Positions 16,287-55,648 of a stretch of 64,000 bases of DNA are shown in pieces (within the stretch, counting starts at the first letter, position 1; each line of letters starts with the position of its first letter). Source of the DNA: an uncultured Planctomycetia bacterium (GTDB taxonomy: Bacteria > Omnitrophota > Gorgyraeia > 2-02-FULL-51-18); contig CAZSGP010000003.1 in NCBI GenBank assembly GCA_964606485.1, positions 270,479 through 334,478 on the forward strand. The letters are read 5' to 3'. The position numbers were made by a program, and so were the translations under genes. The notes below the pieces were generated by a model. That model was given only the letters and a program-made list of their open reading frames with translations, did not search any database and was not told the DNA's origin.

Positions 16287-16293
16287 AAATCCT

Positions 16294-36312: not shown

Positions 36313-37058
36313 TTTTCTAAAACTCCAGCGCTCCGACCCCAACACAACCACAGCAGCGCAAAATACCCACCAATTGTTTTAAGCGGCTTGTTTTTACTGG
36401 CACCTGCCTTTTTTTCATAGTGAAGGACGAACGGAATTTCGGTGATTCTGCATTTCATGAGACGAAATTTAATGAGAATTTCCGGTGTCACCACAAAACC
36501 CATATGCGGCAGCTCGACAAATTTGTCACCAAAAATCCGAAACGCTTTTTGAAGTGTCTCGGCGCGCATTGCGCGGTAACCGCAGCTGTATTCCCAAACA
36601 CCTTTGATGGGAAAAAAAAGTTTCAAAAAAAGTCCCGCGCCACGGCTTAAAACACTTCGAACACCGGACAACCCCTCTTCCCCGCCGCCTTTTTGATAGC
36701 GCGACAAAATCACAACGTCGTAACCTTCGCTTAGCTTTTGCATCGCCTTCGGAATGTACACCGGGTCATGCGTGTCATCGCAGTCCAGAGTAACAATCGT
36801 ATCGCCGGGAGCGGACGTTTTAGCTGCGTGATGAAGCCCGTCAATCATCGTCTGCCCCAAACCTCGGTTAACCTCATGACGAAGAATCTCGAATGGAAAT
36901 TTCACGGACAATTCTTTTGCTTTTTCATACGTCCGGTCGCTACTACCGTCATCCAAAATTAAAATTCGGTAGCCAGAACCGAGAGCAGCATGAATTTTTT
37001 GAGCGATCGGCTCGAGAGCGAGCTCCTCGTTATAGGCAGGCAAAAAAACGGTGATCAT
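36309..37058 (-). CDS. GT2 polyprenyl-phosphate sugar synthase (DPM1-like)
   Basis: ITVFLPAYNEE...LDDGSSDRT...LDCDDTHDP GT-A motifs. ATGA overlap with the upstream gene. Confidence 0.75.
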   Translation of the reverse strand: MITVFLPAYNEELALEPIAQKIHAALGSGYRILILDDGSSDRTYEKAKELSVKFPFEILRHEVNRGLGQTMIDGLHHAAKTSAPGDTIVTLDCDDTHDPVYIPKAMQKLSEGYDVVILSRYQKGGGEEGLSGVRSVLSRGAGLFLKLFFPIKGVWEYSCGYRAMRAETLQKAFRIFGDKFVELPHMGFVVTPEILIKFRLMKCRITEIPFVLHYEKKAGASKNKPLKTIGGYFALLWLCWGRSAGVLEK

Positions 37059-38155
37059 TCGAAAAAGAGGCGCAGCGCCGCCACCACGTGTTTCTGGGCG
37101 CCGAGCGTTAAGCCGTTAAACATGGGAAGCGATATCATTCGTTCGCTAACACTCTCCGTTACAGGCAGATCCCCTTGCTGGTAACCCAGCTCCTTATAAC
37201 ACTCCTGCAAATGAAGCGGTACCGGATAGTAAATACCCGTCCCGATACCTTTGGCCGTGAGAAATTCGCGGAGCGCATCACGCTTTTCGACAAGCAGTGT
37301 GTACAAATGAAAGACATGCGTCTGATTTTTAGGCACAAACGGAACAGTTACAGACACATTCTTCAGTAGTGCGTTGTAGCGGGAGGCTATTTGATTGCGC
37401 TCCTTGTTCCATCGCTCGATGTATTGCAGCTTGATCAAAAGCACCGCAGCTTGCAAATCATCCAGCCGACAGTTAAATCCAACAATCTCGTGATAGTATT
37501 TTTTTCGTGAGCCATAGTCTCGATAAAGCTTGATCTGATCCGCAATCTTGTCGTCGGAAGTCAACACCATACCCCCATCTCCGCACCCACCTAAATTTTT
37601 TGTCGGGTAAAATGAAAGACAGCCCGCATCCGCAATCGAACCCGCATTTTTACCTTTATAAATTGCGCCGTAGCTCTGAGCGGCGTCTTCCACAACTTTC
37701 AGATTGTACTTTTTTGCAATTTTTTGAATCGGCTCCAAATCCGCACAGAGACCGTAAATGTGAACCGGTAGAATTGCTTTTGTTTTTTTAGTGATTGCCT
37801 TTTCAATTTGGGAAGGGTCAATGTTAAAAGTCTTAGGATCAATATCCACAAACACCGGCTTTGCACCAATGCGCGAAATCGATCCGCCCGTTGCAAAAAA
37901 AGTAAACGGTGTGGTGATTACTTCATCACCGGGACCCACTCCACAAGCTAAAAGCACGAGATACAACGCGTCAGAACCCGAAGAAACACCGATAGCGTGT
38001 TTCACGCCACATCTTTTAGCAATTTCTTTTTCAAGGCTCACCACATTGCTTCCCAGTATGAATTGGCGGGACTTCAAAACTTTCGAAAATGCTTTTTCAA
38101 TCTTCGAATCAACAAGGCGAAACTGAGGATTTAAATCAATAAACGGAACCTTCAT
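37055..38155 (-). CDS. DegT/DnrJ/EryC1/StrS-family PLP-dependent sugar aminotransferase
   Basis: [30 protein letters not shown] and a ~366-aa length typical of the family. Confidence 0.8.
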   Translation of the reverse strand: MKVPFIDLNPQFRLVDSKIEKAFSKVLKSRQFILGSNVVSLEKEIAKRCGVKHAIGVSSGSDALYLVLLACGVGPGDEVITTPFTFFATGGSISRIGAKPVFVDIDPKTFNIDPSQIEKAITKKTKAILPVHIYGLCADLEPIQKIAKKYNLKVVEDAAQSYGAIYKGKNAGSIADAGCLSFYPTKNLGGCGDGGMVLTSDDKIADQIKLYRDYGSRKKYYHEIVGFNCRLDDLQAAVLLIKLQYIERWNKERNQIASRYNALLKNVSVTVPFVPKNQTHVFHLYTLLVEKRDALREFLTAKGIGTGIYYPVPLHLQECYKELGYQQGDLPVTESVSERMISLPMFNGLTLGAQKHVVAALRLFFE

Positions 38156-38165
38156 GAATACTCTC

Positions 38166-40151
38166 TTAAGCTAAAACGGCTTGAGCCGGTGTTGAATGAA
38201 CTTTGACAATTTCGTAGTTAGTGTTGCGCTGGAAAGGCGTTTTGCCAATTTCGGAAATCAAACGGATCGCTTCGGCTTTATCGACGCCAGAATAAAGCTT
38301 ATCACTCTTAGTAGCGCTTACCACATTTTCTTCCATTAGAATTCCGCCAAAATCATCAGCGCCAAAACGGAGTGCTGCTTGCGATAATTTTGGACCTTCG
38401 GTGACCCAACCTGCTTGAATATGTTGAATATTGTCGAGCATAATGCGTGACAGCGCCACCATGCGAAGGTATTCGCTTCCCGTGCGGCGCGGCATCAACA
38501 TCTGTGTAGACTCTGATTCAAAACTCCACGGAATAAACGCGCGGAAGCCACCAGTCCTGTCTTGTAGAGTGCGGTACTGGTCAAAATGAATCATCCGCTC
38601 TTCGATGGTTTCTCCAAGCCCGTAAACCATGGTGCTCGTGCTTTTTAAACCGGCGCGGTGGGCGGCTTCATGAACTTCAAAATAATCTTTCACGGTGGTT
38701 TTGAGCGGACTTACGATTTGACGCACGCGATCCACTAAAATCTCGGCTCCCCCACCCGGAAGACTGTTTAAACCCGCCTTTTTTAAGCGCGCAATCACTT
38801 CATCGATAGAAATTTTAGAAATTTTGGACATATGTTTAATTTCAGATGCTGAGAACGAGTGCACGTGAACCTGTGGAAACGTCGTGTGCACAAACGTCAC
38901 CAGATCTTCGTAGTATTCGATACCGAGCTCAGGATTGTGCCCGCCCTGCAGCAGCACTTGTGTTCCGCCAATATCCAAAAGCTCCTGAATTTTGTTGCGA
39001 ATTTCTTCCTGCGAGCGCACATAGCCTTCACTTTTGTCGCCCGGCAAACGATAAAACGCGCAGAACTTGCAAAGCGTGTAGCAGTAATTGGTGTAATTGA
39101 TATTGCGATCCACCACAAAAGTTGCTTGGGTCGCGGCATTCGGATTTTTTCGCTCGCAAATCTCATTTGCTACCGCACCCAATGCATGCAAACTCGCTTC
39201 ATAATAAAGTTTTACACCTTCTTGAATCGAAACCCGCTCGCCCTTCAAAGCTTTCCCGAGAATTTCCTCGCAAGATAGCGTGCTGTGCGATGACTGGGAA
39301 TGATCCTTAAAAAGAGACGGGAGCTCTTCTAAAACTACCGCTTCCTTTAAAAGACCGTATTCTGCAGCGTACTCCAAAAAGATTCTCAAACCATTTTTTA
39401 GCGAATCATCGAAATGATAACGCAGAACCGAAAAATAATCTTGAAGCACGGTGCGTGAAAGTTCGGTTTTTTCGAACGCCTTATTCAGAACCTCTTGTGA
39501 GTTGGCCTTACCCCAATCACGGGAACGTAAAATTCCTTCGTAAATAGCCGTTACGGCATCGGGGTATTGATCATAAAACTCACGGCGTACGGCCCAGAGC
39601 GCAAATACGAACGGTGTTTGGGTGGTCTCCTGCCAAACTTTGGCCAAATCAATAAAATGAAGCCCCGCGTCTTTTTTGTGGGATTCATACGCATGAAGCG
39701 CCTGATCGCCAATCAGCAGCACCGCATCGAAACCTTGCGGAATCTCTCCAAAATCGGAGGATGCAATAGTTAAATCCGGATCAAATCCGTGGCGCGTGCG
39801 GCACAGCACTTTTAAAAGCGCCGGCGTGGTGCTCCCCTTGTCAGTGATCGCTATCTTTTTTCCCTTAAGCTCGGCAAGTGTAAACCGGCTCACCAAAAGA
39901 ACACTATAAACCGCGCTTTCGGAGCTAATGGACAGATCTGGCAACAGATAAAATTTCTCCGAGTGAGACGCGTACCAAAAAGCTGAGATCGGACTAATAT
40001 CGAGATCCCCACTCAACATTTTTTCGTTGAGCTGCATCGGAGTGCCTTGAACGATTTGTGCGTTCAAACGGATTTTGGAATTTAAAATTCCCAAGTCCAC
40101 CGGCAAAGAATTGATGAATTCAATTGAGCCTACTTTTGCGAGGGATTTCAT
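38166..40151 (-). CDS. Fusion of an MqnA/MqnD-family (VitK2_biosynth) domain with a radical-SAM MqnE/MqnC-family domain (futalosine pathway)
   Basis: Single 661-aa ORF. The N-terminal ~270 aa are MqnA-like (GSIEFINSLPV..., ISPISAFWYA). The C-terminal ~380 aa are radical SAM with CYTLCKFCAF (CxxxCxxC) and the CofH/MqnC/MqnE-type C-terminus. Confidence 0.7.
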   Translation of the reverse strand: MKSLAKVGSIEFINSLPVDLGILNSKIRLNAQIVQGTPMQLNEKMLSGDLDISPISAFWYASHSEKFYLLPDLSISSESAVYSVLLVSRFTLAELKGKKIAITDKGSTTPALLKVLCRTRHGFDPDLTIASSDFGEIPQGFDAVLLIGDQALHAYESHKKDAGLHFIDLAKVWQETTQTPFVFALWAVRREFYDQYPDAVTAIYEGILRSRDWGKANSQEVLNKAFEKTELSRTVLQDYFSVLRYHFDDSLKNGLRIFLEYAAEYGLLKEAVVLEELPSLFKDHSQSSHSTLSCEEILGKALKGERVSIQEGVKLYYEASLHALGAVANEICERKNPNAATQATFVVDRNINYTNYCYTLCKFCAFYRLPGDKSEGYVRSQEEIRNKIQELLDIGGTQVLLQGGHNPELGIEYYEDLVTFVHTTFPQVHVHSFSASEIKHMSKISKISIDEVIARLKKAGLNSLPGGGAEILVDRVRQIVSPLKTTVKDYFEVHEAAHRAGLKSTSTMVYGLGETIEERMIHFDQYRTLQDRTGGFRAFIPWSFESESTQMLMPRRTGSEYLRMVALSRIMLDNIQHIQAGWVTEGPKLSQAALRFGADDFGGILMEENVVSATKSDKLYSGVDKAEAIRLISEIGKTPFQRNTNYEIVKVHSTPAQAVLA

Positions 40152-41246
40152 TTAGGCCACCAAATGCTCTTTGTGAATCGCGGTATAAGTGCTATTAACT
40201 TCCACCGGCTCAAAATGACAAGCCTTAATCAAATTCACAAGTTCGCTGTAAGTAAACCCTTTGGAGGTGGACCCGGCAACCTTTGCAATGACTTCATCAA
40301 AGTTCGTGCCGCCCAAATCATCCACGCCATACTCGAGCGCCACGTGAATGAGTTTTTCGTCGACATAATTCCAAAGCTGGCGAATATGCGGGAAATTATC
40401 AATCATCAGCCGCGCCGTCGCAAGCACCTGCAAATCGGTGGCGCCGCTGGTTCTAGGAATGTAGGACAGTTCGTTATTCTCCGGCTGAAACGCGAGCGGC
40501 ACAAAAGCAAGGAATCCGCCCGTTTCATCCTGCGTCTCGCGCAAACGAATCATATGATCCACGCGCTCTTCCGGTGTCTCGACATGACCGTACAACATGG
40601 TTGCGTTTGATCGCAGTCCTGAACGGTGAACCATTTTGTGAACGTCAAGCCAACGCGTGGCGCTAATTTTGGGCGCACAAATAAGAGCCCGGGCGCGTTC
40701 ACTGAAAATTTCAGCTCCTCCACCTGGCACGCCGCCAAGCCCAGCAGCAATAAGACGATCGATCACTTCCTGAACATTAATTTTTTCAAGTCTGGCATAA
40801 AAATCAAGCTCAACCGCCGTGAACGCCTGAATTAAAACGCCGGGGCAGGATTTTTTAATGCGCGAGAGCATTTCTTCGTAGTAAGAAAGTTTGAGCTCGG
40901 GGTCGAGCCCCCCAACAATGTGAACCTCCCAAACGCCGTGACTTGCCGCAACCTTGACGCGCCGCTCAATCTCATCGATCGAAAGCTGATAAGCATCCGA
41001 CTCCATTTTCTTTTTGGAGAATGCGCAAAACTTACACTCCAAAACGCAAATGTTCGTGTGATTGACGTTGATGCTATGCGTAAAATGGGCTTTGTTTGCA
41101 TGTAAGCGGCGGCGCACAAAATCAGCCATTGCGCCAAGCTCCGGTAAATTGTGGCTACGAATCAACCGGTGCCCATCCTCACGGGAAAGACGCGTGCCTG
41201 CTTTTACTTTTTCAAAAATATCCGCAAATTCTTTGACGATTGTCAT
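40152..41246 (-). CDS. Radical-SAM enzyme of the MqnC/MqnE (CofH-like) family (futalosine pathway)
   Basis: CVLECKFCAF CxxxCxxC motif; 364 aa. The sequence is homologous to the C-terminal half of the adjacent fusion protein. Confidence 0.75.
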   Translation of the reverse strand: MTIVKEFADIFEKVKAGTRLSREDGHRLIRSHNLPELGAMADFVRRRLHANKAHFTHSINVNHTNICVLECKFCAFSKKKMESDAYQLSIDEIERRVKVAASHGVWEVHIVGGLDPELKLSYYEEMLSRIKKSCPGVLIQAFTAVELDFYARLEKINVQEVIDRLIAAGLGGVPGGGAEIFSERARALICAPKISATRWLDVHKMVHRSGLRSNATMLYGHVETPEERVDHMIRLRETQDETGGFLAFVPLAFQPENNELSYIPRTSGATDLQVLATARLMIDNFPHIRQLWNYVDEKLIHVALEYGVDDLGGTNFDEVIAKVAGSTSKGFTYSELVNLIKACHFEPVEVNSTYTAIHKEHLVA

Positions 41247-41854
41247 TCAGCTCCAGCCTCTTTCCAGCGCTTAAAAAGGTTATGTTCTATTTTCAACAAA
41301 TCAAAAACTCGCCCAATCGTAAAATCCACCATCTCTTCAATTGTTTTGGGCTTGTGGTAAAACGCTGTGGTGGCCGGCACAATGTGAACACCGATCTCCG
41401 ACAGATAGAGCAAATTTTTCAAGTGAATCGGACTTAAAGGACTCTCGCGCGGCACAAGTAGCAGCGGTCGCTTTTCCTTGATCGACACGCTCGCTGCGCG
41501 ATGAATCAAATTCATCGTAATCCCATTCGCGATGGCTCCCACCGTGGACAAGCTACACGGGATCACCACCATGGCGTCCATTTTAGCAGAACCACTGGAA
41601 ACTTTTGCAGCAAAATCATCGGCCGGATAAACGGTGAGATTCTTGCTATTTCCAAAGTGTTTCTTAAAATTTTTGTCAATTTCGCCGTGCGTCTTTCCCA
41701 GAAAAATTTCGCGCTCTTGGGCGAACACCTCAACCCCATCTCGACTAATGACAACATGCGCCTCGTGACCTGCTTTAAGCAAATGCCCCACAAAGCGCTC
41801 TCCTAAGATCGCGCCGCTAGCACCCGTAATACCAACGATAATTTTTTGACCCAT
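41243..41854 (-). CDS. ubiX: UbiX-family flavin prenyltransferase
   Basis: MGQKIIVGITGASGAILG N-terminus typical of UbiX/Pad1. Start is taken at the internal Met (41854), so the gene abuts the UbiA-family gene; the ORF extends to 41884. Confidence 0.75.
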   Translation of the reverse strand: MGQKIIVGITGASGAILGERFVGHLLKAGHEAHVVISRDGVEVFAQEREIFLGKTHGEIDKNFKKHFGNSKNLTVYPADDFAAKVSSGSAKMDAMVVIPCSLSTVGAIANGITMNLIHRAASVSIKEKRPLLLVPRESPLSPIHLKNLLYLSEIGVHIVPATTAFYHKPKTIEEMVDFTIGRVFDLLKIEHNLFKRWKEAGAE

Positions 41855-41855
41855 A

Positions 41856-42701
41856 CTACAAGATCTCCAATAGGGTAAACACAAAAAGAAGCACGCCCAC
41901 CCAACCGTTCACAGTAAAGAAAGCAGCGTTAATATTTGACAGATCGTCTTCCGAAACAAAGTTATGCTCGACTTTGAGTAGAACGGCCGTGACACAAACC
42001 CCCGCCCAATACACCCAACCCAGTCCCGCAATCACTCCAAAAAAACCGAGCAGAACCACGGTTGCAATGTGGCAGATCCGGGCAATTCGAAGAGCCCCGC
42101 CAATTCCAAATCGAACCGGCACAGAGTGAAGTTTGTTTGCTCGGTCAAAATCCAAGTCCTGCAAACTATAAATAATGTCAAAGCCCGCTACCCAGAGTAA
42201 CACCGCAAACGCAAGCGGCACAGGGATCCACGAAAACGCGCCGGTCACCGCAATCCATCCGCCCATCGGCGCCATGGCGAGCACCAGGCCCAGCACCCAG
42301 TGGCTTAGAAAGCTAAAGCGCTTTACGCTGTGATAACCCACCAAAAAAACAAGTGCTACAAAAGACAACTTAAAACAAAGTGCGTTCAAAAAATAAGCGC
42401 TTAAGAAAAATATCGCGAGTGACACTCCCGCGACCATCCACGACACTTTCGCAGAAATTTGCCCGGTGACACTCGGCCGGTCCTTGGTCCGCGGATTTTG
42501 CGCGTCTATTTTTAAATCGATAATCCGGTTTAAAACCATGGCGGCGGTTCTTGCTGAAACCATTGCAAGCGTGATCCAAAAAAAAGTCGCACCATCCGGA
42601 AATCGCCGACGCGCCAGCACCATCCCCAGATACGCAAATGGAAGCGCAAATACTGTATGCTCAAACTTAATGAGATTAAAAAAAGTTCGGACTTTATTCA
42701 C
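41856..42701 (-). CDS. UbiA-family aromatic prenyltransferase (menaquinone/MqnP-like)
   Basis: 281-aa polytopic membrane protein with Asp-rich motifs (NRIIDLKIDAQN; DIIYSLQDLDFD) characteristic of UbiA prenyltransferases. Confidence 0.75.
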   Translation of the reverse strand: MNKVRTFFNLIKFEHTVFALPFAYLGMVLARRRFPDGATFFWITLAMVSARTAAMVLNRIIDLKIDAQNPRTKDRPSVTGQISAKVSWMVAGVSLAIFFLSAYFLNALCFKLSFVALVFLVGYHSVKRFSFLSHWVLGLVLAMAPMGGWIAVTGAFSWIPVPLAFAVLLWVAGFDIIYSLQDLDFDRANKLHSVPVRFGIGGALRIARICHIATVVLLGFFGVIAGLGWVYWAGVCVTAVLLKVEHNFVSEDDLSNINAAFFTVNGWVGVLLFVFTLLEIL

Positions 42702-42708
42702 TTAAAGG

Positions 42709-43026
42709 CTAATAAACTTTTACGATTTCGTTGACGCGTGTCACATTCAAAACTTTTTTAACCGTATCAGAGGCATTGACGATAGCCACGTTGATCTTTC
42801 GCTCCGACGCGACTTGCGCCAACTCAAAGATGAGACCGATGGCGGCGGAGTCGATGTATTCGGCTTCCTTAAAATCCATAAAAAATTCACGCCCGGTGAT
42901 TTCGCGAATTTTATCGAGCATGGAGTCGTGAATTTTCATCACGTCTTCCCCAGCCATCTCCCCTTGTATCCGCGCAATGCAGGAACCATTTTTTTGAATA
43001 TCGTAAAAAATTTTAAGATCGTCCAT
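42709..43026 (-). CDS. STAS-domain protein (anti-sigma-factor antagonist SpoIIAA-like)
   Basis: About 105-aa STAS-like sequence (DSAAIGLIFELAQVASERKINVAIVNASDTVKKVLNVT). Start is taken at the internal Met MDDLKIF (43026); the ORF extends to 43104. Confidence 0.55.
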   Translation of the reverse strand: MDDLKIFYDIQKNGSCIARIQGEMAGEDVMKIHDSMLDKIREITGREFFMDFKEAEYIDSAAIGLIFELAQVASERKINVAIVNASDTVKKVLNVTRVNEIVKVY

Positions 43027-43028
43027 TT

Positions 43029-44483
43029 CTAGACTCCTAATTTGCTCCACAGCGCATCGACTGTTTTTTTGGTTGTGTCGTCCATCTGAATCTCTTCGGG
43101 CCACTGCCGAGCGTAGCCCTCATCTTTTCGTTTGGCCGTCGCATCAATTCCAAGTTTTGAACCAAAATCTCTTTCGGGTGAAGCGTGATTCAGGGTGTCC
43201 ACCGGCCCCTCCACCACAAACAAATCACGCTTAGGGTCAATATTGTTAAAAACGGTGAGTGCAACTTCGGAAAGATTGTGCACGTTTACGCTTTTGTCGA
43301 CGACAATCACCACTTTGGTGAACGACAACTGACCCAAACCCCAGATGGCATGCGCAACCTTGCGCGCTTGGTGAGGATACTGTTTGTCGATGGATACGAT
43401 CACGGCGTTGTTAAAGGTGCCTTCCATTGGGAAATTCATATCCACGATTTCCGGAATCTGTTTTTTTAAAATCGGCAAAAAACTTTTTTCAATCGCCTTG
43501 CCCATGTAATAGTCCTCCATCGGGGGTTTTCCGACAATTGTTGTCAGATAAATTGGATTTTTTCGCATCGTGATGCAGTGCACTTTGAAAGCAGGGAAAT
43601 ATTCGACCGGTGTGTAAACACCCGTATGATCGCCAAACGGACCTTCAATTCGCAAGTCGTCCGGATCCACCGTGCCCTCTAAAATAATTTCACTCTCAGC
43701 CGGAACGTCCACATCAATTGTTTTGCATTTGACGAGGTCGACACCTTTGCGCCTTAGAAAACCGCTGAATAGTAATTCGTCCATTCCAAATGGAAGCGGC
43801 ACCACACCTGCAAATACCGTCGCAGGGTCTCCACCCAAAGCCACGGCCACTTCCAGCTTCTTCCCCATTTTTTTTGCTTTTTGGGCGTGAATCGCGCCGT
43901 CCTTTTGCGTCTGCCAATGCATTCCGGTAGTCTTATCATCATACACATGCATTCGGTAAACGCCCATATTGCGCTCACCCGTTTCAGGGTCCTTCGTGCA
44001 AACGAGCGGAAGCGTGATAAACGGGCCACCATCATTCGGCCAACATTTTAAAATAGGGATCTGGGAGAGCCTGGGTTCATGAATCACAATTTCTTGGCAC
44101 GGCGCTGACTGAACGTGTTTGGGTGGAATCTTAGACAAATCTAAAAGCGTTCCGAGTAATTTTACTTTTCCCTCGAATGTTTTAGGCACACCTTTGATTT
44201 CTAGAATCTCATGAATGGACTTCGCAGCATCGTCGATGGTTTCGCAGCCCATGGCCATGGCCATTCGTTTGTAAGAACCAAAAGCATTGATGAGAACCGG
44301 AATGTTGTGGCCTTTGACGTTTTCAAAAAGCAAGGCTTTGCCGCCATCCGGGCTCTTAGAGACGCGGTCTGTGATCTCGGTGATTTCGAGCTCTGCTGAA
44401 ACTTCCTGGCGGACACGGACAAGTTCGCCGGCACGGTCTAGCGCTGAAATAAACTCTCGAAGATTTCGGTGGTGACCCGCCAT
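43029..44483 (-). CDS. ubiD: UbiD-family (prenylated-FMN dependent) decarboxylase
   Basis: 484-aa UbiD-like sequence located between UbiA/UbiX and UbiE homologues. Confidence 0.75.
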   Translation of the reverse strand: MAGHHRNLREFISALDRAGELVRVRQEVSAELEITEITDRVSKSPDGGKALLFENVKGHNIPVLINAFGSYKRMAMAMGCETIDDAAKSIHEILEIKGVPKTFEGKVKLLGTLLDLSKIPPKHVQSAPCQEIVIHEPRLSQIPILKCWPNDGGPFITLPLVCTKDPETGERNMGVYRMHVYDDKTTGMHWQTQKDGAIHAQKAKKMGKKLEVAVALGGDPATVFAGVVPLPFGMDELLFSGFLRRKGVDLVKCKTIDVDVPAESEIILEGTVDPDDLRIEGPFGDHTGVYTPVEYFPAFKVHCITMRKNPIYLTTIVGKPPMEDYYMGKAIEKSFLPILKKQIPEIVDMNFPMEGTFNNAVIVSIDKQYPHQARKVAHAIWGLGQLSFTKVVIVVDKSVNVHNLSEVALTVFNNIDPKRDLFVVEGPVDTLNHASPERDFGSKLGIDATAKRKDEGYARQWPEEIQMDDTTKKTVDALWSKLGV

Positions 44484-45199
44484 TACTTCGTTGCCTGATA
44501 AAGCGTTACGGTTCCCAACATAAAGGAACGAAAGCGAATATCACGAAAACCTGCCTTTTTTAATTTCTCGATAAATTCCGGAACTTTCACAAATCGCTCC
44601 GCAGAATCCGGCAGATATGCGATTGGGTACACTTTTCCAAAAAGAAGCCGCCCGTATAACGCGGTCATGGTGTGCATGTAAAATCTAAAAAATTTCACGC
44701 GCCATTCTTGCTTGGGTGCCGTGATGTCTAGAAAACTAATTTGGCCGCCTACTTTAAGCGAAGCGCTCACCCCTTTTAAAATCGCATCTATGTTTTGATA
44801 GAGATTTCTTAAAACAAATCCAGAGACCACGAGGTCAAACGGTTGTTCGTTGGCAATCGGCAATTCCTCGGCTTTCATGAGAACAAAGCGCGGCTTTGAG
44901 CCAATTTTTGACTCGAGCGACTGCCCCCTCTGATTGGCCACTTCCAGCATCTTGTCCGAGAAATCTATTCCGACAACGCTGCCCTCTTTACCAACAAGAG
45001 GCACGGCTCCCAGCGACAAATCTCCCGTTCCACAACCCAGATCCAAAACGCGCATTCCCGGTTTTAGAGGCTTCAACGTCTCTTTTCTCCAACCCGTGGC
45101 GAGGCCCATGCTCGTTAAGTGATTAAAAAGATCGTATTTGAGCGCAAGATTATCGAACATGGTCTTGATGTATCTAGAATCAGGTTGACTGGACGGCAT
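44483..45199 (-). CDS. ubiE: Demethylmenaquinone/ubiquinone C-methyltransferase (UbiE/MenG family)
   Basis: UbiE-type sequence with VLDLGCGTGDL SAM motif; 238 aa. It is the first gene of the minus-strand menaquinone operon. Confidence 0.8.
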   Translation of the reverse strand: MPSSQPDSRYIKTMFDNLALKYDLFNHLTSMGLATGWRKETLKPLKPGMRVLDLGCGTGDLSLGAVPLVGKEGSVVGIDFSDKMLEVANQRGQSLESKIGSKPRFVLMKAEELPIANEQPFDLVVSGFVLRNLYQNIDAILKGVSASLKVGGQISFLDITAPKQEWRVKFFRFYMHTMTALYGRLLFGKVYPIAYLPDSAERFVKVPEFIEKLKKAGFRDIRFRSFMLGTVTLYQATK

Positions 45200-45216: not shown

Positions 45217-46404
45217 ATGTGGCAATATCCTACTATGGAAGAACTTAGATTACAAGAAGAACTCAAGAAAACCCGCCGCGAACTGCAGCTTTTTTATGAA
45301 ATCGGCAACCTCATCCGGAAAACACTTTTTTTGGATGAAGTTATTTATTTAATTTTAAGCGCCATCACGAGTCACGAGGGAATGGGATTTAATCGCGCTG
45401 TTCTTTTTCTCGTCGACGACACTGGCACTTTGCTGGAAGGAAAAATGGGCATCGGTCCAAAAGACCCTCAGACATCGAAAGCCACATGGAAAACGATTGA
45501 ACAAAACCACATCACCCTCGAAGGTCTGCTGGATGTTTATCATAAGGCCAACAAAGTAATTGATCCGGAACTCAACGAAACGATTCGCCAGGTCAAGCTT
45601 CCGATTCAGAAAGATTTTGGAATTCTTCCCAAAACAATTATTTACGACAACCCATCTCTGATTGAAAAAGAAGATGCGAACCACGAGTTGTGTGATATGA
45701 AGCTGCAGGAGCTCGGCGCTGAGCAATTTGTGACAGTTCCCTTGCGCGGCAAGGACCGCGTTATTGGAACTCTGTTTATTGACAATGTCTCCACTCGCAA
45801 AGCCATCTCCGAAAATGATGTGCAGCGTCTCATGATGCTCGCCAATCACGCAGGGCTTGCCCTTGAAAATGCCCTCACCTTTAGCGCGCTAGTCGTCAAT
45901 TCGCAACAGGATTCCCTGACCAAACTATGGAATCATGGCCACTTTCAGAAACTTCTTCATGAGTGTCTCATGGACTCCAAAATTCACAAGCGCCCACTCA
46001 GTCTCGTTATTTTTGACGTTGATAATTTCAAAGAGTACAACGATAGCTTCGGTCATCCGGCTGGCGATCGCGCCTTGGAACTGATTGCCCTCAACGCAAA
46101 AACCGTGATGCGACGCATGGATTATTTGGCGCGCTACGGCGGGGAAGAATTTGCGGCTGTTTTGCCGGGGACCTCTAAAGAGGAAGCGATTAAGCTCGCG
46201 GAACGCCTGAGAGATGGCATTGAAAAAGAAACTTCGAGCAAATCCATCGCCCCACGCAAAGTAACCGTTTCGGTGGGAGTGGCCTCATATCCGGAAGATG
46301 CGGATGAAAAAGAGAAATTGATTTTCTGCGCCGATGGCGCCCTGTACGAAGCTAAGAAATTAGGAAAGAATCAAACCCGCGCTTATAAAAAGCCGACCCG
46401 CTAA
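45217..46404 (+). CDS. GAF-GGDEF diguanylate cyclase
   Basis: N-terminal GAF-like region and a C-terminal GGDEF domain with an intact RYGGEEF active-site motif. Confidence 0.75.
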   Translation: MWQYPTMEELRLQEELKKTRRELQLFYEIGNLIRKTLFLDEVIYLILSAITSHEGMGFNRAVLFLVDDTGTLLEGKMGIGPKDPQTSKATWKTIEQNHITLEGLLDVYHKANKVIDPELNETIRQVKLPIQKDFGILPKTIIYDNPSLIEKEDANHELCDMKLQELGAEQFVTVPLRGKDRVIGTLFIDNVSTRKAISENDVQRLMMLANHAGLALENALTFSALVVNSQQDSLTKLWNHGHFQKLLHECLMDSKIHKRPLSLVIFDVDNFKEYNDSFGHPAGDRALELIALNAKTVMRRMDYLARYGGEEFAAVLPGTSKEEAIKLAERLRDGIEKETSSKSIAPRKVTVSVGVASYPEDADEKEKLIFCADGALYEAKKLGKNQTRAYKKPTR

Positions 46405-49358
46405 ACCAGCACTTCTTCTTTGTCTTTATCCTTCACAGCGTCTTTTTCTTTGGCCTTCTCAGAAAACTTCACAGAAACAATGCGACTTACTCCGGTTTGA
46501 GCCATGGTGATGCCGTACATGGCATCCGCCAAACTCATGGTGCGCTTGTTGTGAGTGATTAAAATAAATTGGGACCCCGTAATAAATTCCTTTAGCACGT
46601 TGCAGAAGCGTTCTACATTGGTTTCGTCAAGTGGTGCATCGATTTCGTCGAGCACACAGAACGGGCTAGGACGCACTTTGAAAAGTGCAAAAACCATGGC
46701 AACGGCCGTCAGCGCTTTTTCTCCACCCGACAACAGGGAAATATTTTGTAATTTCTTTCCGGGAGGACGCGCGACAATTTCAATACCGCTTTCTAAGATA
46801 TTATCCGCATCAAGCAGTACGAGCTCCGCGGTGCCACCATTAAAAAGGATTTTATAGTACTCGGAAAAATATTGCTGAACCTTTTCAAAGGTTTCCGCAA
46901 AAAGCTCACGGGTTGTGCGGTTAATTTTTAAGATCGCCTTATGCAGATCCTCTTTGGCTTGAACTAGATCCTGCTCTTGTTTGGTGAGGAAATCGTATCG
47001 CTCACGCATCTCATCATACTCTTGCATGGCCGCTAAGTTCACTGGGCCGAGCTTTTGAATTTTATCTTTTTGGGTTTGAATTTGAGCTCTCGCCTCATCC
47101 AGGTCTGAGATTTCCGATTCGGGCAGCGTGGCGAGCGCCTCAATCGTGAGCTCAAAGTTATACGCATTAAAAACGCGGTCACGCAAACGGCTAATCTCAA
47201 ACTGATCTTTGGCGTTTTCAAGTTCAGCGTGATGAGCTTTGTCGCGGCACTCTTTGATAAAATCTTCTTTTTCGTCTTTTTGGGTTTCTAAAAGCTCGAG
47301 ACGCGCAGAGGCGTCTTCCAGATCCCGCCGCAATCCTTCGCTCTGACGCAGAATTTCATCGCGTTCCTCGGCGGCTTTCATAGACTCTTCTTCGAGCGCC
47401 AGATTTTCCTCTTCCAACTGGTCTTTCTTGGAAACGGCCTCCATGACTTCTTTTTCAAAATTTAGGATTTGTGCTTCTTCCGAACGCCTGGAACTTTCAA
47501 CCCAAGCGCGATCTTTTTCGATTTGCTCACACTTGGCACTGCGACTCGCCTGCTCTGAACGCGCTTGGGTGAGACGAATCAACTTTTCGTCCTTCAATAC
47601 TGCGCTCTGGCTAAAACTCTCTTCGATTTTTAAGATTTGTGCGGCGATATTCCGTTCTTCTTCAAACACCTGATTCAAGGACTGTGAAATGGTCTGCTCT
47701 TTTTCAAGGAGAGCATTTTCTTCATTTAGCACCTGCTGAATTTCACCAGCAATTACCGCAAGCTTGGCTTCGAGCTTGTTTCGAAGCTCGGTTAACGCTT
47801 TTTGGCGGGTTTGGTATTCGAGTGTTTGTGCATGCAAGCCAACCACGTCGTCCGTGAAACGCTGAATCTCACTCTCAATTAAAAGCTCTTCTTCGGCGCC
47901 AGGCGACTGCTTGCCAGCCTGGAAAAGATTTTGGAAAATTTCAATCAGCTTCGTTTTAAAATTTTTAAAGCGGTCGTTTAAGCGCTCCACTGGCGTCTGG
48001 ACGGGCAACGACCCCTCTTGGCCCGCATTCTCAAAGAGAGGGAGACCGGAGCCGATGCTCGCTTCGCGGATCTCTGCTAAAAGCGCCTCTTCTTCGGACT
48101 TGATACGCTTCAATCTTCCCTGTAAACCAGCTGTCAAAGAGGTTGCGCGGGAAAACTCTGACTGCCAGCGGTTTTTCTCGTCACCCAATTCGTTAAGCCT
48201 TACACGCAAAGCGTGCCGCTCGGATTCGGTTGAGGCGACTTGGCTTTGAAATTGATTAAAATCTGATTCTGCCGATTGCAATACAACAACCGCTTCTTCC
48301 TCTTCGCCTTTCAGCATTGAAAGCTGTGCATCCAGACGCTCAAATTCCTGCGAAAGTCCGGCAGCGCGGGTTCGGGTGTCTTCAATTTGCCGCGTCAAAT
48401 TTTCACGACGCTCCACAAGCTCGCCGATGCGTTCGCGATTCAAAAGAACGCGGTCGCGGCTTTTCTGCACACGCGCATCGATTTCAAAAATTTTAGACTG
48501 ACTAAGGCTCGCCTGCACCTCGAGCTCATGAAGCGCTTCTTTTTGTTCGTGATAGCTCTGCGCAAGTTCCGTCAAACCATTTTCTGCATTTGACACTTCT
48601 TCGCGAAGGGCTTCCAGATTTTCCTGGGCAAATTTAAGCTTCGCCTCAAGGCTTAAAAATTCCTTACTCGCTACAGCAATTTCGAGATTCTTTAATTTTT
48701 CAAACTCAATTTTATAGCTTTCGGCTTTTTTGGCTTGGCGCTCCATCGACCCAATCTGGCGCTTCACTTCCTGGATGATGTCATTGACGCGGAGTAAGTT
48801 TTGTTCGGTTTGCTCAAGCTTACGGAGCGCTTCTTTTTTCTTGGCCTTAAATTTGGTAATACCGGCAGCTTCTTCGAAAATCTCGCGGCGCTGATCAGGC
48901 TTTGCGTTGATCACCTGATCCATCTTCCCCTGCTCGATGATGGAATAACCTTCCGTTCCAATACCGGTTCCCAAGAGAAGCTCTTGAATATCTTTTAAGC
49001 GAACCACATTTTTGTTGAGAAGGTATTCACTGTCGCCTGAGCGATACAAGCGGCGCGTAATCACCACTTCATCGTAATCAATGGCGAGCAGTCGGGTTTC
49101 GTTGGCAAGGGTTAGTGAAACTTCGGCGAGATTTTGAGCATCGCGGCTAGAGCTACCGTTAAAAATAACATCTTCCATGCTAGAGCCGCGCAAAGACTTA
49201 GCGCTTTGCTCACCAAGCACCCACCGAATGCCGTCGGAAATATTGGATTTGCCGCAACCATTCGGCCCGACAATGGCGGTGACACCCGGCTCAAATAAAA
49301 TCTCGGTTTTATCGGCGAAGGACTTGAATCCGAAGATTTCTAATTTTTTAAAATACAA
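46401..49358 (-). CDS. smc: SMC-like chromosome segregation ATPase (compact, hinge apparently absent)
   Basis: Walker A GPNGCGKSN; SMC C-terminal motifs LGPVNLAAMQEYDEMRERY, LSGGEKALTAVA (signature) and DEIDAPLDE (Walker B); long coiled-coil regions. It is only 985 aa, and the mid-region (~430-500) lacks the glycine-rich SMC hinge motifs. TTG start at 49358 with an AAGGAG RBS. Confidence 0.7.
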   Translation of the reverse strand: MYFKKLEIFGFKSFADKTEILFEPGVTAIVGPNGCGKSNISDGIRWVLGEQSAKSLRGSSMEDVIFNGSSSRDAQNLAEVSLTLANETRLLAIDYDEVVITRRLYRSGDSEYLLNKNVVRLKDIQELLLGTGIGTEGYSIIEQGKMDQVINAKPDQRREIFEEAAGITKFKAKKKEALRKLEQTEQNLLRVNDIIQEVKRQIGSMERQAKKAESYKIEFEKLKNLEIAVASKEFLSLEAKLKFAQENLEALREEVSNAENGLTELAQSYHEQKEALHELEVQASLSQSKIFEIDARVQKSRDRVLLNRERIGELVERRENLTRQIEDTRTRAAGLSQEFERLDAQLSMLKGEEEEAVVVLQSAESDFNQFQSQVASTESERHALRVRLNELGDEKNRWQSEFSRATSLTAGLQGRLKRIKSEEEALLAEIREASIGSGLPLFENAGQEGSLPVQTPVERLNDRFKNFKTKLIEIFQNLFQAGKQSPGAEEELLIESEIQRFTDDVVGLHAQTLEYQTRQKALTELRNKLEAKLAVIAGEIQQVLNEENALLEKEQTISQSLNQVFEEERNIAAQILKIEESFSQSAVLKDEKLIRLTQARSEQASRSAKCEQIEKDRAWVESSRRSEEAQILNFEKEVMEAVSKKDQLEEENLALEEESMKAAEERDEILRQSEGLRRDLEDASARLELLETQKDEKEDFIKECRDKAHHAELENAKDQFEISRLRDRVFNAYNFELTIEALATLPESEISDLDEARAQIQTQKDKIQKLGPVNLAAMQEYDEMRERYDFLTKQEQDLVQAKEDLHKAILKINRTTRELFAETFEKVQQYFSEYYKILFNGGTAELVLLDADNILESGIEIVARPPGKKLQNISLLSGGEKALTAVAMVFALFKVRPSPFCVLDEIDAPLDETNVERFCNVLKEFITGSQFILITHNKRTMSLADAMYGITMAQTGVSRIVSVKFSEKAKEKDAVKDKDKEEVLV

Positions 49359-49451: not shown

Positions 49452-50228
49452 CTAGAATCCGATGATATTGTAGCCAGAATCCACAAAAATGACTTCGCCG
49501 GTAATTCCGCGGCTCAAGTGGCTAGCTAGGAACAAAGTGGTGTCGCCGACTTCCTCGGGCTCCGTGTTGCGTCGAAGCGGAGATTTTTCACGCGCAAGTC
49601 TCAAAATATCCTGAAGTCCGGAAATGCCGCGTGCTGCAAGCGTGTTGATGGGGCCGGCTGAAATAGCATTTACACGAATATTTTTAGGGCCCAAATCAAA
49701 CGCCAAGTATTTTACGCTCATCTCAAGTGCTGCTTTAGCAACGCCCATCACATTGTAATGCGGCATCACGCGCTCACCACCCAAATACGTGAGCGTCACT
49801 ACACTTCCGCCGCCTCTTTTTTCAAAGAGCGGAACAAATTTTTGGCAGACCCCTGTGAGCGAATAAGCGCTAACGCCGAGTGCCGTGTCAAAACCATCTT
49901 TTTTGGTGCGAAAATAATCCGTCTCCAAATCTTCCGCTTTAGCGAAAGCGACGGCGTGCAGAATAAAATCAATTCCACCCCAAGCCTTATCGATTTCCGT
50001 CACTAGCGCATCCACTTGCGCCTCCTGCATCACATCACATGGAAAGACGAGCGAGTTCGGAAGCGTCTTAGCAAGTTCTTCCACATTTTCCTTGAGCCGC
50101 TCCCCTTGATAGGAAAAAACGATTTGAGCGCCTTCGCGCGACAAACTCTTTGCGGCCGACCAAGCGATACTGCGCTTATTGGCGACGCCTAAAATTAATC
50201 CTTTTTTACCTTCCATTAGATTTGCCAT
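49452..50228 (-). CDS. fabI: Enoyl-[acyl-carrier-protein] reductase (NADH), FabI
   Basis: FabI-type SDR sequence (GLILGVANKRSIAW..., catalytic Tyr/Lys region). Start is taken at MANLMEGKKG (50228), which abuts the fabF stop; the ORF extends to 50276. Confidence 0.8.
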   Translation of the reverse strand: MANLMEGKKGLILGVANKRSIAWSAAKSLSREGAQIVFSYQGERLKENVEELAKTLPNSLVFPCDVMQEAQVDALVTEIDKAWGGIDFILHAVAFAKAEDLETDYFRTKKDGFDTALGVSAYSLTGVCQKFVPLFEKRGGGSVVTLTYLGGERVMPHYNVMGVAKAALEMSVKYLAFDLGPKNIRVNAISAGPINTLAARGISGLQDILRLAREKSPLRRNTEPEEVGDTTLFLASHLSRGITGEVIFVDSGYNIIGF

Positions 50229-50229
50229 A

Positions 50230-51474
50230 TTAGCCCCTGAATTTTTTAACGATAACCGACGTATTGTGCCCGCCAAATCCTAGTGAATTCGATAGACAAG
50301 CTTCAACCTTAGTCTGGCGTGCGGCGTTTGGCACATAATCCAAATCACATTCCGGATCGGGTGCGGTCAGATTCATCGTCCCGTGAAGTGTTTGATGCTC
50401 GAGCGACAAACAGCAGGCTACAAATTCAATTCCACCGGCGGCACCTAGCGTGTGACCTGTCATCGACTTTGTGGAATTGACCTGAAGTTTTTTAGCGTGA
50501 TCACCAAATGTTTTCTTGATCGCCAATGTTTCGATTTTATCGTTAAGATCCGTTGAGGTTCCGTGCGCGTTGATGTATTGAATATCAGAAGGATTCATCT
50601 TGGCGTCTCTTAGCGCAAGATTCATGCAGTGGGAAGCGCCCTCTCCGTCCGGATTTGGGGCGGTCATGTGGTACGCGTCCCCATTCAAAGCGTAACCCAC
50701 AAGCTCTCCGTAAATTTTGGCACCGCGTTTTTTAGCGTGCTCTAATTCTTCAAGCACCACCACACCTGCACCTTCGCCCATCACGAATCCATCGCGCTCT
50801 TTGTCAAACGGCCGCGAGGCGGCGTGCGGGTCATCATTTCTCGTAGAAAGCGCTTTGAGCGCGCAGAATCCGCCAATTCCCAAAGGGGTTATGCAGCTCT
50901 CAGTTCCACCTGCAATCATGACTTTAGCTTGGCCGTGTTGAATGATGCGAAAGGCCTCGCCAATCGAATGAGTTCCCGTAGCGCACGCTGTGACGACCGC
51001 TAAATTAGGACCCTTAAAATTCAGGAGAATTGAAATCCAGCCGGAGGCCATATTGATAATTAGAAGCGGGATCATGAATGGAGAAAATTTCTCCGGTCCC
51101 TTGTTTAGATAAATCGAATGCGTTTCTTCGACAATGCGCAGACTTCCAATGCCAGAACCAACCAGAACGCCGAGCTCCCGAGGATCTTCCTTGGAAACAT
51201 CAAGCCCCGAATCTTTAAAAGCCTCCAACGCCGCAGTCACCGCAAACTGAGCAAACTGCTCCATGCGGCGGGACTCTTTTAAAGGAATGGTTGCTTTGGG
51301 ATCGTAGCCTTTGACTTCCGCGGCAATTTTAGCGTCGAATCTCTGAGGGTCAAAATAGGAGATTTTTTCGACACCACTTTTACCGGAAAGAAGAGACTTC
51401 CAAAACTCTGGGACGTTGTTGCCCACAGGCGTGACAGCGCCAAGACCTGTAACAACAACCCGTGAATAGGACAT
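50230..51474 (-). CDS. fabF: Beta-ketoacyl-ACP synthase II
   Basis: RVVVTGLGAVTPVGN N-terminus, active-site Cys region (AVVTACATGTHS) and the His-His region; 414 aa. Confidence 0.85.
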   Translation of the reverse strand: MSYSRVVVTGLGAVTPVGNNVPEFWKSLLSGKSGVEKISYFDPQRFDAKIAAEVKGYDPKATIPLKESRRMEQFAQFAVTAALEAFKDSGLDVSKEDPRELGVLVGSGIGSLRIVEETHSIYLNKGPEKFSPFMIPLLIINMASGWISILLNFKGPNLAVVTACATGTHSIGEAFRIIQHGQAKVMIAGGTESCITPLGIGGFCALKALSTRNDDPHAASRPFDKERDGFVMGEGAGVVVLEELEHAKKRGAKIYGELVGYALNGDAYHMTAPNPDGEGASHCMNLALRDAKMNPSDIQYINAHGTSTDLNDKIETLAIKKTFGDHAKKLQVNSTKSMTGHTLGAAGGIEFVACCLSLEHQTLHGTMNLTAPDPECDLDYVPNAARQTKVEACLSNSLGFGGHNTSVIVKKFRG

Positions 51475-51499
51475 TCGTGGGGTCTAAAAAGCCTGGAGT

Positions 51500-51748
51500 T
51501 TATTTAGAAGCTTTGCTGGCTTTTTCTTCGATATATCGGACAGCTTCGCCGACATTCGTCATCTTTTCGGCGTCTTCATCAGGAATCTCGATACCGAATT
51601 CTTCTTCCAAAGCCATCACAAGCTCAACCGTATCCAGCGAATCTGCTCCCAAATCATCTACAAAAGAAGCGGTGTCACTGACTTCTTCAACCTTAACACC
51701 TAGCTGTTCGGCAATAATGGACTTCACTTTCGCTGCTACTTCGGCCAT
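51500..51748 (-). CDS. acpP: Acyl carrier protein
   Basis: 82 aa with [20 protein letters not shown] around the phosphopantetheine Ser. A strong AAGGAGG RBS lies upstream. Confidence 0.9.
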
Positions 51749-51776
51749 CGATTCCTCCTTTTACCGCGTTTGAAAT

Positions 51777-52535
51777 TTATTGCATCACCATTCCACCGTC
51801 TACGGTGATGACTTGCCCTGTTACGTAATTACTTTCGTCGCTAGCCAGATAAAGCGCTGTTTTTGCAACGTCCAACGGTTTACCGAAGCACGCCGCCGGA
51901 ATATTTTTGAGTATTGCTTGTTTGGTCTCCTGGCTTAAAGCGTCTGTCATTTCCGTTTCAATGAACCCAGGAGCGATTGCGTTCACTAAAACGTTGCGCG
52001 AACCTAATTCTTTGGCGAGTGACTTGGTTAGAGCGATGATCCCCGCTTTGCTAGCGGCGTAATTGGCCTGCCCGGCATTGCCAGTCAATCCAATCACGGA
52101 AGCCATATTAATAATGCGCCCCGCTCTTTGTTTCATCATTGCTTTTGAAGCGGCGCGCATGCATAAAAATGTGCCTTTGAGATTGGTGTTAAGCACTTCA
52201 TCCCATTGGTCTTCCGACATTCTAACAAAGAGCCCGTCGCGTGTGATTCCCGCGTTGTTGACGAGTATATCAATGCGACTATAATTGTCAAGAGTTTTGT
52301 CCGTCATTTCCTCCACTTTGGCCGCGTTTTTCACGTCCAATTCAAAAACCATCGGCGACTTTCCGCCGAATGCCGTAATTTCTTGGGCAAGTTTTTGGAG
52401 TGCGTCCAAACTTCTGGCTGTAAGCACGAGCTGGGCGCCCTCTTTGGCAAAAAGGAGCGCAATCTCGCGGCCAATGCCGCGACTCGCACCCGTTACGATT
52501 GCAACCTTCCCCTCTAATTTTTTAGTCGAGGACAT
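51777..52535 (-). CDS. fabG: 3-oxoacyl-ACP reductase
   Basis: GKVAIVTGASRGIGREIA Rossmann motif with the SDR catalytic region. Start is taken at the internal Met MSSTKKLEGK (52535); the ORF extends to 52583. Confidence 0.85.
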   Translation of the reverse strand: MSSTKKLEGKVAIVTGASRGIGREIALLFAKEGAQLVLTARSLDALQKLAQEITAFGGKSPMVFELDVKNAAKVEEMTDKTLDNYSRIDILVNNAGITRDGLFVRMSEDQWDEVLNTNLKGTFLCMRAASKAMMKQRAGRIINMASVIGLTGNAGQANYAASKAGIIALTKSLAKELGSRNVLVNAIAPGFIETEMTDALSQETKQAILKNIPAACFGKPLDVAKTALYLASDESNYVTGQVITVDGGMVMQ

Positions 52536-53442
52536 GGAAGTCTCCAATCGAGCTGAGTGAAATAGTTTCGACCGTAGGATCAATTTTTTTAAGCAGTCCC
52601 TTTAATACCTTGCCCGGCGAAAATTCAACAAACGTTTTGACACCATTGGAAATCATAAAACGCATCGAGTCTTCCCAGAGCGTGCGGTGATTCATTTGAA
52701 GCACCAGATTCTGCTTAATTTTAATGGGGTCATTTTCAATATTGGCCGTCAGATTGCTCACTACTGGAATGAGCGGTTTTTGAACGGGTACAATTTCAAG
52801 CGCCTTCTCAATTTTTTGACAGGCGGAGTTCATGCAGGAAGAGTGAAACCCACCGCTAACTTCCAATGGAATTACTTTGCGGGCACCCGCCTCGCGCAAT
52901 TTTTCAATGGCCACCTCTACTTTGTGTTTGAATCCAGAGATAACAATCTGACCGGGCGCGTTTAGGTTCCCCACCTCGGCGCCGGTTTCATGGCAAATCT
53001 TTTCCACAATGGCAAGTTCGAGACTCAGCACCGCAGCCATCATTCCAGGCTTCTCGGCGGCTGCTTCGTCCATAAAAAGTCCACGCGAACGCACAAAACG
53101 AACGCCATCATCAAAACTAATAGCCCCTGCCGCGCAAAGTGCGGTGGCTTCGCCTAGTGAAAGTCCGGCGGTAAACTTAGGGTTATAATTATTGGCCTTA
53201 GCATAGGTTTTAAAAACTGCCAGTGCGGCCATGCTGGTCGTAAATATAGCCGGCTGGCTATAGCGAGTCTTTGTGAGCTTGTCTTCGGGTCCGTCAAAAC
53301 AGGCGCTCTTCACATCAAAATCTAAAAGTTCAGCGGCGCGGTCAAAAATCTTTTTAGCTTCGGGATGGTGATCATAGAGATCCTTGCCCATTCCCACAAA
53401 TTGCGAGCCCTGGCCCGGAAATAAAAAGGCTGCGTCTACCAC
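52522..53442 (-). CDS. fabD: Malonyl-CoA:ACP transacylase
   Basis: AFLFPGQGSQFVGMG and GLSLGE motifs. The likely start is a GTG at 53442 overlapping the fabH stop; the longest ORF begins with TTG at 53463. Confidence 0.85.
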   Translation of the reverse strand: MVDAAFLFPGQGSQFVGMGKDLYDHHPEAKKIFDRAAELLDFDVKSACFDGPEDKLTKTRYSQPAIFTTSMAALAVFKTYAKANNYNPKFTAGLSLGEATALCAAGAISFDDGVRFVRSRGLFMDEAAAEKPGMMAAVLSLELAIVEKICHETGAEVGNLNAPGQIVISGFKHKVEVAIEKLREAGARKVIPLEVSGGFHSSCMNSACQKIEKALEIVPVQKPLIPVVSNLTANIENDPIKIKQNLVLQMNHRTLWEDSMRFMISNGVKTFVEFSPGKVLKGLLKKIDPTVETISLSSIGDFHVLD

Positions 53443-55424: not shown

Positions 55425-55429
55425 TTCTA

Positions 55430-55648
55430 TTAAGCCTTCTTCTTCTTTTCTTTGGTCTTTATCTGAATAACGGGACGGCCTTTGTAATAGCCGCACTTGG
55501 GGCAAACCCGGTGAGGCGCGTGAGGCACGCAGTTATCCGCACCTAGTGGGCAATGCGGATCCTTGGACGTTCCCATAGCCGTCATCACATCATGTGTGCG
55601 GCGCTTGCGCGTACGGGTATTTGAATGTCTTCGTTTTGGATTAGGCAC
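55430..55648 (-). CDS. rpmF: 50S ribosomal protein L32
   Basis: MPNPKRRHSNTRTRKRRTHD N-terminus characteristic of bL32, with a C-terminal CxxC..CxxC zinc-ribbon; 72 aa. Confidence 0.85.
   Translation of the reverse strand: MPNPKRRHSNTRTRKRRTHDVMTAMGTSKDPHCPLGADNCVPHAPHRVCPKCGYYKGRPVIQIKTKEKKKKA

Follow-up and report, generated by a model that had tools for sequence, protein, structure and literature searches.

A predicted MqnA-MqnC fusion protein encoded in a futalosine-pathway menaquinone operon of an Omnitrophota bacterium

In the futalosine pathway, MqnA (chorismate dehydratase) catalyses step 1, MqnE (aminofutalosine synthase) step 2, a nucleosidase (MTAN or MqnB) step 3, MqnC (cyclic dehypoxanthinyl futalosine synthase) step 4 and MqnD step 5 (PMC9672406 and established knowledge). 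In the MqnA of S. coelicolor, Asn17 and Ser86 are catalytically important and are absolutely conserved in MqnA, and Gly151, Tyr242 and a hydrophobic pocket touch the product (PMC9672406). No structure of MqnC was found in the copy of the Protein Data Bank (PDB) searched, where the nearest solved relative is an MqnE (6XI9). Here, we describe a single gene that appears to encode both MqnA and MqnC. It is located at 38166..40151 on the minus strand of a 64-kb stretch of DNA (64,000 nucleotides; hereafter the window) from contig CAZSGP010000003.1 of GenBank assembly GCA_964606485.1.

The domains of one fused protein need not catalyse consecutive steps, and HisB of E. coli is an example of this. 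Plant PHYLLO (MenF-MenD-MenC-MenH) is a fusion that belongs to the classical menaquinone/phylloquinone pathway (PMC6189191). Like the protein described here, both became multi-domain proteins through the merging of genes of one pathway. However, they consist of unrelated enzyme families that belong to other pathways, and the parallel is one of analogy, not homology. A description of mqn gene fusions was not found in the open-access papers searched.

The gene is one uninterrupted open reading frame (ORF) that starts with ATG and encodes 661 amino acids (aa). Pfam searches with the protein returned VitK2_biosynth (PF02621) at residues 6–264 (E value 1.6e-59, covering positions 2–252 of the 252 in the model), Radical_SAM (PF04055) at residues 351–520 (6.8e-22) and CofH_C (PF19288) at residues 535–651 (6e-29). 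The fused architecture is therefore real, and the preliminary description of this DNA, which had reported a 661-aa protein with an MqnA/MqnD-fold domain fused in frame to a radical S-adenosylmethionine (SAM) domain, was correct in this respect. The CxxxCxxC motif that it had noted, a [4Fe-4S]/SAM cluster motif, corresponds to C357, C361 and C364 (39060..39083, minus strand), and these three residues are invariant in all 26 of the fused homologues aligned. The N-terminal domain occupies 39360..40136 (minus strand), and the C-terminal domain occupies 38205..39239 (minus strand, residues 305–649). They are separated by a linker of about 25 residues (approximately residues 271–296; 39264..39341, minus strand). 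Both the length and the sequence of the linker vary among the fused homologues, and alignment columns from about 275 to 312 are unconserved. Its counterpart in stand-alone MqnA is the C-terminal tail, which here leads directly into the N-terminus of MqnC ('...ILxKALxGxRV...').

We assign the N-terminal domain to MqnA, based on its sequence and on the fold of the predicted model. When used alone to search the PDB, it matched chorismate dehydratases, namely SCO4506 (7ahr; E value 2.9e-37) and the one from D. radiodurans (about 3e-26), and there was no match to MqnD at E<1. A profile built from 37 sequences scored 275.6 bits against MqnA, compared with 58.2 bits against MqnD (TTHA1568, 2czl/3a3u). 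Using Foldseek, the predicted domain was superposed on MqnA structures with template modelling scores (TM-scores, normalised to target length) of 0.90–0.93 and a root-mean-square deviation (rmsd) of 1.9 Å; the top superposition was with 7an5 (TM-score 0.93, rmsd 1.9 Å). For MqnD, the equivalent values were 0.77 and 3.4 Å. An identity as MqnD was ruled out by the profile scores, by the fold and by the retention of MqnA-specific residues. The possibility that the domain belongs to an unrelated periplasmic-binding-protein family, which the preliminary description had left room for, does not fit with the full-length PF02621 match and the MqnA fold.

Asn17, Ser86, Gly151 and Tyr242 of S. coelicolor MqnA correspond to N14, S83, G148 and Y239 in the fused protein, and the equivalents of the hydrophobic pocket are I10, P38, V81, I147, F183 and A184. 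All of these are invariant or near-invariant among the 26 fused homologues. In particular, S83 is invariant and N14 is conserved in at least 90 % of them, and among 37 MqnA sequences neither residue varies. We considered whether the N-terminal domain could be a non-catalytic binding module for MqnC, and rejected this because all of the catalytic residues of MqnA are conserved. The Venus-flytrap fold is common to the fused domain and to stand-alone MqnA (S. coelicolor SCO4506, PDB 7AHR/2NXO; D. radiodurans 6O9A). The two share about 31 % identity over 245 ungapped residues, including the four residues listed above and the pocket. They differ in that the fused version is the N-terminal part of a 661-aa protein, and in that Ser109 and Arg110 of the substrate loop (S. 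coelicolor numbering) are replaced by Gly and Ser.

The C-terminal domain is assigned to MqnC by its match to family models. It scored 451 bits on the MqnC equivalog model TIGR03699 (NCBIfam; cut-off 428.1), with residues 305–649 covering the whole of the model (1–342 of 342). On the MqnE model TIGR03700 it scored 331.7 bits, which is 119 bits under its MqnC score and does not reach the cut-off of 434.55, and an identity as MqnE was rejected on these grounds. In a neighbour-joining tree of 136 radical-SAM units, the MqnE and MqnC clades were cleanly split and the fused domain fell in the MqnC clade, although the tree does not include a biochemically characterised MqnC as an anchor. Stand-alone MqnC proteins from Omnitrophota (TIGR03699; 370 aa, P0027–P0116) are 70–80 % identical to the C-terminal 55 % of the fused protein. 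Like them, the fused domain passes the equivalog cut-off and includes the CxxxCxxC motif and a CofH_C domain. Unlike them, it is covalently preceded by MqnA.

The stand-alone radical-SAM paralogue that had been noted immediately upstream is present at 40152..41246 (minus strand). It encodes 364 aa, and the ATG of the fused gene follows directly on its stop codon. TIGR03700 is its best family, with a score of 421 bits that is 13.5 below the cut-off, compared with 357 bits on the MqnC model. It also scored 256 bits against the sequence of the crystallised MqnE of Pedobacter heparinus (6xi9), compared with 203 bits for the fused domain, and it was placed in the MqnE clade of the 136-unit tree. 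By these measures, the paralogue is probably MqnE, the pathway partner of MqnA.

These assignments bear on the suggestion in the preliminary description that the fused domains catalyse consecutive steps, whichever they are, and that the fusion implies substrate channelling. Either MqnA would be joined to MqnE or MqnC to MqnD, with the intermediate channelled between them. The domain families named were correct at the Pfam level, and a fusion of MqnE to MqnA does exist elsewhere (P0139, 648 aa, with a TIGR03700 score of 440.9 that exceeds the cut-off). However, the C-terminal domain of the window protein scores higher as MqnC than as MqnE and is outscored by the upstream paralogue against 6xi9, and MqnE is encoded by that separate gene, which does not fit with the first pairing. 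The second does not fit with an N-terminal domain that resembles MqnA rather than MqnD in profile score, TM-score and specific residues. We consider a channelling fusion of either kind to be highly improbable. As the fused domains correspond to steps 1 and 4, with MqnE and the nucleosidase acting between them, the steps are not consecutive and direct channelling is not implied; the product of one domain is not the substrate of the other.

In all likelihood, the product of the gene is a bifunctional MqnA-MqnC protein that acts at two steps of the futalosine pathway. The N-terminal domain, in which the catalytic residues are intact, would convert chorismate to 3-enolpyruvyl-benzoate (step 1), and the C-terminal radical-SAM domain would convert dehypoxanthinyl futalosine (DHFL) to cyclic DHFL (step 4). 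MqnE, from the gene immediately upstream, and a nucleosidase whose gene lies elsewhere would carry out the intermediate steps. The invariance of the catalytic residues indicates that both domains are under clear constraint, and we infer that both activities are retained. In the AlphaFold model, which was based on a shallow alignment of 26 sequences, both domains were confidently folded (mean predicted local distance difference test score, pLDDT, of 84). The pLDDT of linker residues 279–290 was <50 and the predicted TM-score (pTM) was 0.56, and hence no fixed inter-domain geometry is predicted. The linker, which is poorly conserved, is probably disordered. Each domain may therefore be viewed as an independent module on a short flexible tether, acting like its stand-alone counterpart. 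The fusion would then provide a fixed 1 : 1 expression and co-localisation of the two enzymes, rather than a direct hand-over of product, and channelling between the two fused domains would not be expected.

A protein identical to the one encoded in the window is recorded in NCBI (P0001), where its contig is 399 kb long. A further 24 clusters of proteins of 635–665 aa, 60–70 % identical and with the same three Pfam domains, were found in NCBI, ENA, JGI and Logan assemblies, and the names of their sources, where given, indicate Candidatus Omnitrophica or Omnitrophota. The single ORF for MqnA and MqnC was also found in nine species-representative genomes. In relatives where mqnA and mqnC are separate, they are parted by a mere 1-nt overlap or 10-nt gap, and a single indel error in sequencing or assembly could thus make two genes look joined. 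However, the other clusters come from differing projects and assemblers and share the single ORF, with in-frame linkers that differ in length and sequence. A groundwater ENA assembly and a JGI metagenome (L001/L002) both contain the operon with one and the same fused protein (P0012), and the closest relatives of the window, L007 and L008, are likewise fused. As the same single-ORF architecture is seen in independent assemblies, a local frameshift or assembly error at the junction is very unlikely, and we give almost no weight to the view that the fusion is an artefact.

Some taxonomic labels appear to be unreliable. Genes 61–77 % identical to the window protein were found in 11 loci (L007, L008, L010, L011, L015, L017, L019, L022, L024, L025 and L027) whose records bear the title 'uncultured Planctomycetia bacterium', 'Candidatus Eisenbacteria' or 'Candidatus Paceibacteria'. 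The operon is the same in each locus where the flanks are sufficient, and those loci that were included in trees cluster inside the Omnitrophota clade.

The relatives also provide an indication of how the fusion arose. Those with a stand-alone MqnC that is 75–80 % identical to the C-terminal half of the fused protein carry the same operon, in which mqnA and mqnC are neighbouring but separate genes. In L003 and L004, the TAG stop codon of mqnA is followed by a 10-nt spacer containing a GAGGGA ribosome-binding site and then the ATG of mqnC. In L005 and L015, the stop of mqnA overlaps the start of mqnC (GCT TGATG ACG). Together with the direct continuation of the MqnA tail into MqnC in the fused proteins, these separate but coupled forms show that the fusion arose by loss of the stop codon between neighbouring, translationally coupled mqnA and mqnC genes of a conserved operon.

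In a neighbour-joining tree of concatenated MqnA and MqnC (200 bootstraps), the window grouped with the fused L007 and L008 in one clade, and the fused L001 and L010 grouped with the separate L005 and L015 in a second, each with 98 % bootstrap support. The basal lineages were unfused. This pattern requires at least two fusion or fission events within Omnitrophota. Only this minimum is claimed, because the deep Omnitrophota nodes were weakly supported (1–31 %), and the parsimony count of five state changes is not reliable. A single ORF for MqnA and MqnC is also present in four Thermoleophilia/Gaiellales genomes (L028, L030, L039 and L041), which form their own clade, distant from Omnitrophota, and by this placement the fusion in Thermoleophilia/Gaiellales arose independently. 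In L041, mqnE is directly upstream of the ORF, which encodes 717 aa and includes a linker of about 80 aa. L006 (P0117, 47 % identity) represents a further fused lineage.

Among 80 species-representative loci, a sample biased towards hits matching both halves of the query, mqnA and mqnC are fused in 9 and adjacent in 35, mqnA is 0.7–1.6 kb upstream in 12, and mqnC is alone in 20. In Terriglobales/Acidobacteriota, a gene lies between mqnA and mqnC (4886–5524 in L072, 3377–4033 in L083). It was considered as a candidate for mqnB or mqnD, and this was rejected as it encodes a VTT/DedA-family membrane protein (PF09335).

Other fusions join the same three enzyme families end to end, as in the window, but differ in their partners and order. 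MqnE is followed by MqnC in P0094, P0100, P0101, P0107, P0110 and P0120, some of which have source names indicating Desulfobacterota-type bacteria, and the reverse order is found in P0119. P0113 (993 aa) is a triple fusion of MqnA, MqnE and MqnC. Consecutive steps are joined only in the MqnE-MqnA fusion (P0139) and at the MqnA-MqnE junction of the triple fusion. When a library of 1.84 billion proteins was searched for the MqnA domain, only two of the 150 best cluster representatives were long, namely P0021, which is of the MqnA-MqnC type, and P0139.

This variety can be read as 'Rosetta-stone' evidence that MqnA, MqnE and MqnC assemble physically into a futalosine metabolon, in which the fused MqnA-MqnC protein would be a scaffold that docks MqnE. 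MqnE would receive 3-enolpyruvyl-benzoate from MqnA, and it would share a supply of reductant and SAM with MqnC, the other radical-SAM enzyme. Such an assembly would add to the explanation given above. The fusions are repeated and independent and include all of the combinations listed above, mqnA and mqnC are fused or adjacent in many of the 80 loci, and mqnE is directly upstream of fused or adjacent mqnA and mqnC in Omnitrophota, Thermoleophilia, Actinomycetes, Eiseniibacteriota and one record labelled uncultured archaeon. However, operon gene order alone suffices to explain repeated fusions of neighbours, and the bias of the 80-locus sample must be kept in mind. The AlphaFold model did not include a confident interface between the MqnA and MqnC domains, the cluster lacks a gene for the nucleosidase that acts between MqnE and MqnC, and a complex of this kind was not reported in the open-access literature searched. 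On balance, we regard the metabolon as a doubtful extension of the simpler explanation, namely a bifunctional protein made up of two independently acting modules. We note, nonetheless, that two points weigh against this simpler explanation. With an alignment of only 26 sequences, the absence of an interface from the model counts for little, and the wide adjacency of mqnA and mqnC and the many combinations of the three enzymes hint that proximity itself may have been selected, which a purely neutral merger does not explain.

The fused gene is the last in a tightly packed minus-strand operon with the order ubiE-ubiD-(STAS)-ubiA-ubiX-mqnE-[mqnA-mqnC], and the Pfam and NCBIfam assignments for its genes support the earlier view that this is a futalosine-pathway locus for menaquinone. 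The first gene (44483..45199) encodes a UbiE/MenG-family methyltransferase. It is followed by genes for a UbiD-family menaquinone-biosynthesis decarboxylase of the SCO4490 type (43029..44483; TIGR03701 609 bits, cut-off 495.9), a small STAS-domain protein (42709..43104), a UbiA-family prenyltransferase that is MqnP-like (41856..42701; 274–316 bits on MqnP models, which is below their exception cut-offs) and a UbiX-family flavin prenyltransferase of the MqnM type (41243..41884), all on the minus strand. The STAS-domain (anti-sigma-antagonist-like) gene, between the decarboxylase and UbiA-type prenyltransferase genes, is found in the same operon position in the Omnitrophota relatives L003 (4190–4513), L005 (2225–2551), L019 (1069–1380) and L024 (1051–1365), and was not detected by tblastn in L001, L009 and L022. 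Searches of the 64-kb window (tblastn with both domains, and Pfam on 37 window ORFs) did not reveal MqnD, MqnB/MTAN or a further paralogue.

Downstream of the operon, positions 1–38155 are occupied by a long sugar-modification/glycan cluster that includes genes for DegT aminotransferases, several GT2 glycosyltransferases, epimerases/dehydratases, hexapeptide and membrane acyltransferases, nucleotidyltransferases and methyltransferases. The position of the DegT gene directly after mqnC (37055–38155) is retained in most Omnitrophota relatives. Within this region, no Pfam family matched a 354-aa ORF (16234–17298, plus strand) at E≤1e-5. A 395-aa ORF (45217–46404, plus strand) lies upstream of the operon in divergent orientation, followed by a 985-aa ORF (46401–49358, minus strand); from synteny with L001/L002 only, these are presumed to be GAF-GGDEF (diguanylate cyclase-type) and SMC genes, respectively. 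Beyond them is a fatty-acid synthesis cluster (49452–55505, minus strand) with PlsX, FabH-, FabD-, FabG-, FabF- and enoyl-reductase-like genes. At the edge of the window, a gene for haem-copper oxidase subunit I (COX1; 62775–63944, minus strand) is consistent with a quinone-dependent respiratory chain.

In the MqnA-MqnC protein, known enzymes are combined in a new architecture, one that is recurrent and mechanistically unsurprising. The locus is a clean example of translationally coupled neighbours (TGATG overlap) that fuse and split repeatedly, and it illustrates that fusion by itself does not imply channelling. The full set of MqnA, MqnE and MqnC combinations leads to the testable hypothesis of a physical association between the early futalosine enzymes. 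In Helicobacter, Campylobacter and Chlamydia, the futalosine pathway is recognised as a target for antibacterials, and the natural fusions could serve as handy constructs when the enzymes are to be co-expressed or their structures studied. Databases already contain this architecture, and the sources name the fused proteins solely as MqnC ('cyclic dehypoxanthinyl futalosine synthase'). Because MqnA is hidden inside entries named in this way, it could be wrongly counted as absent when the pathway is reconstructed for Omnitrophota and some Thermoleophilia.

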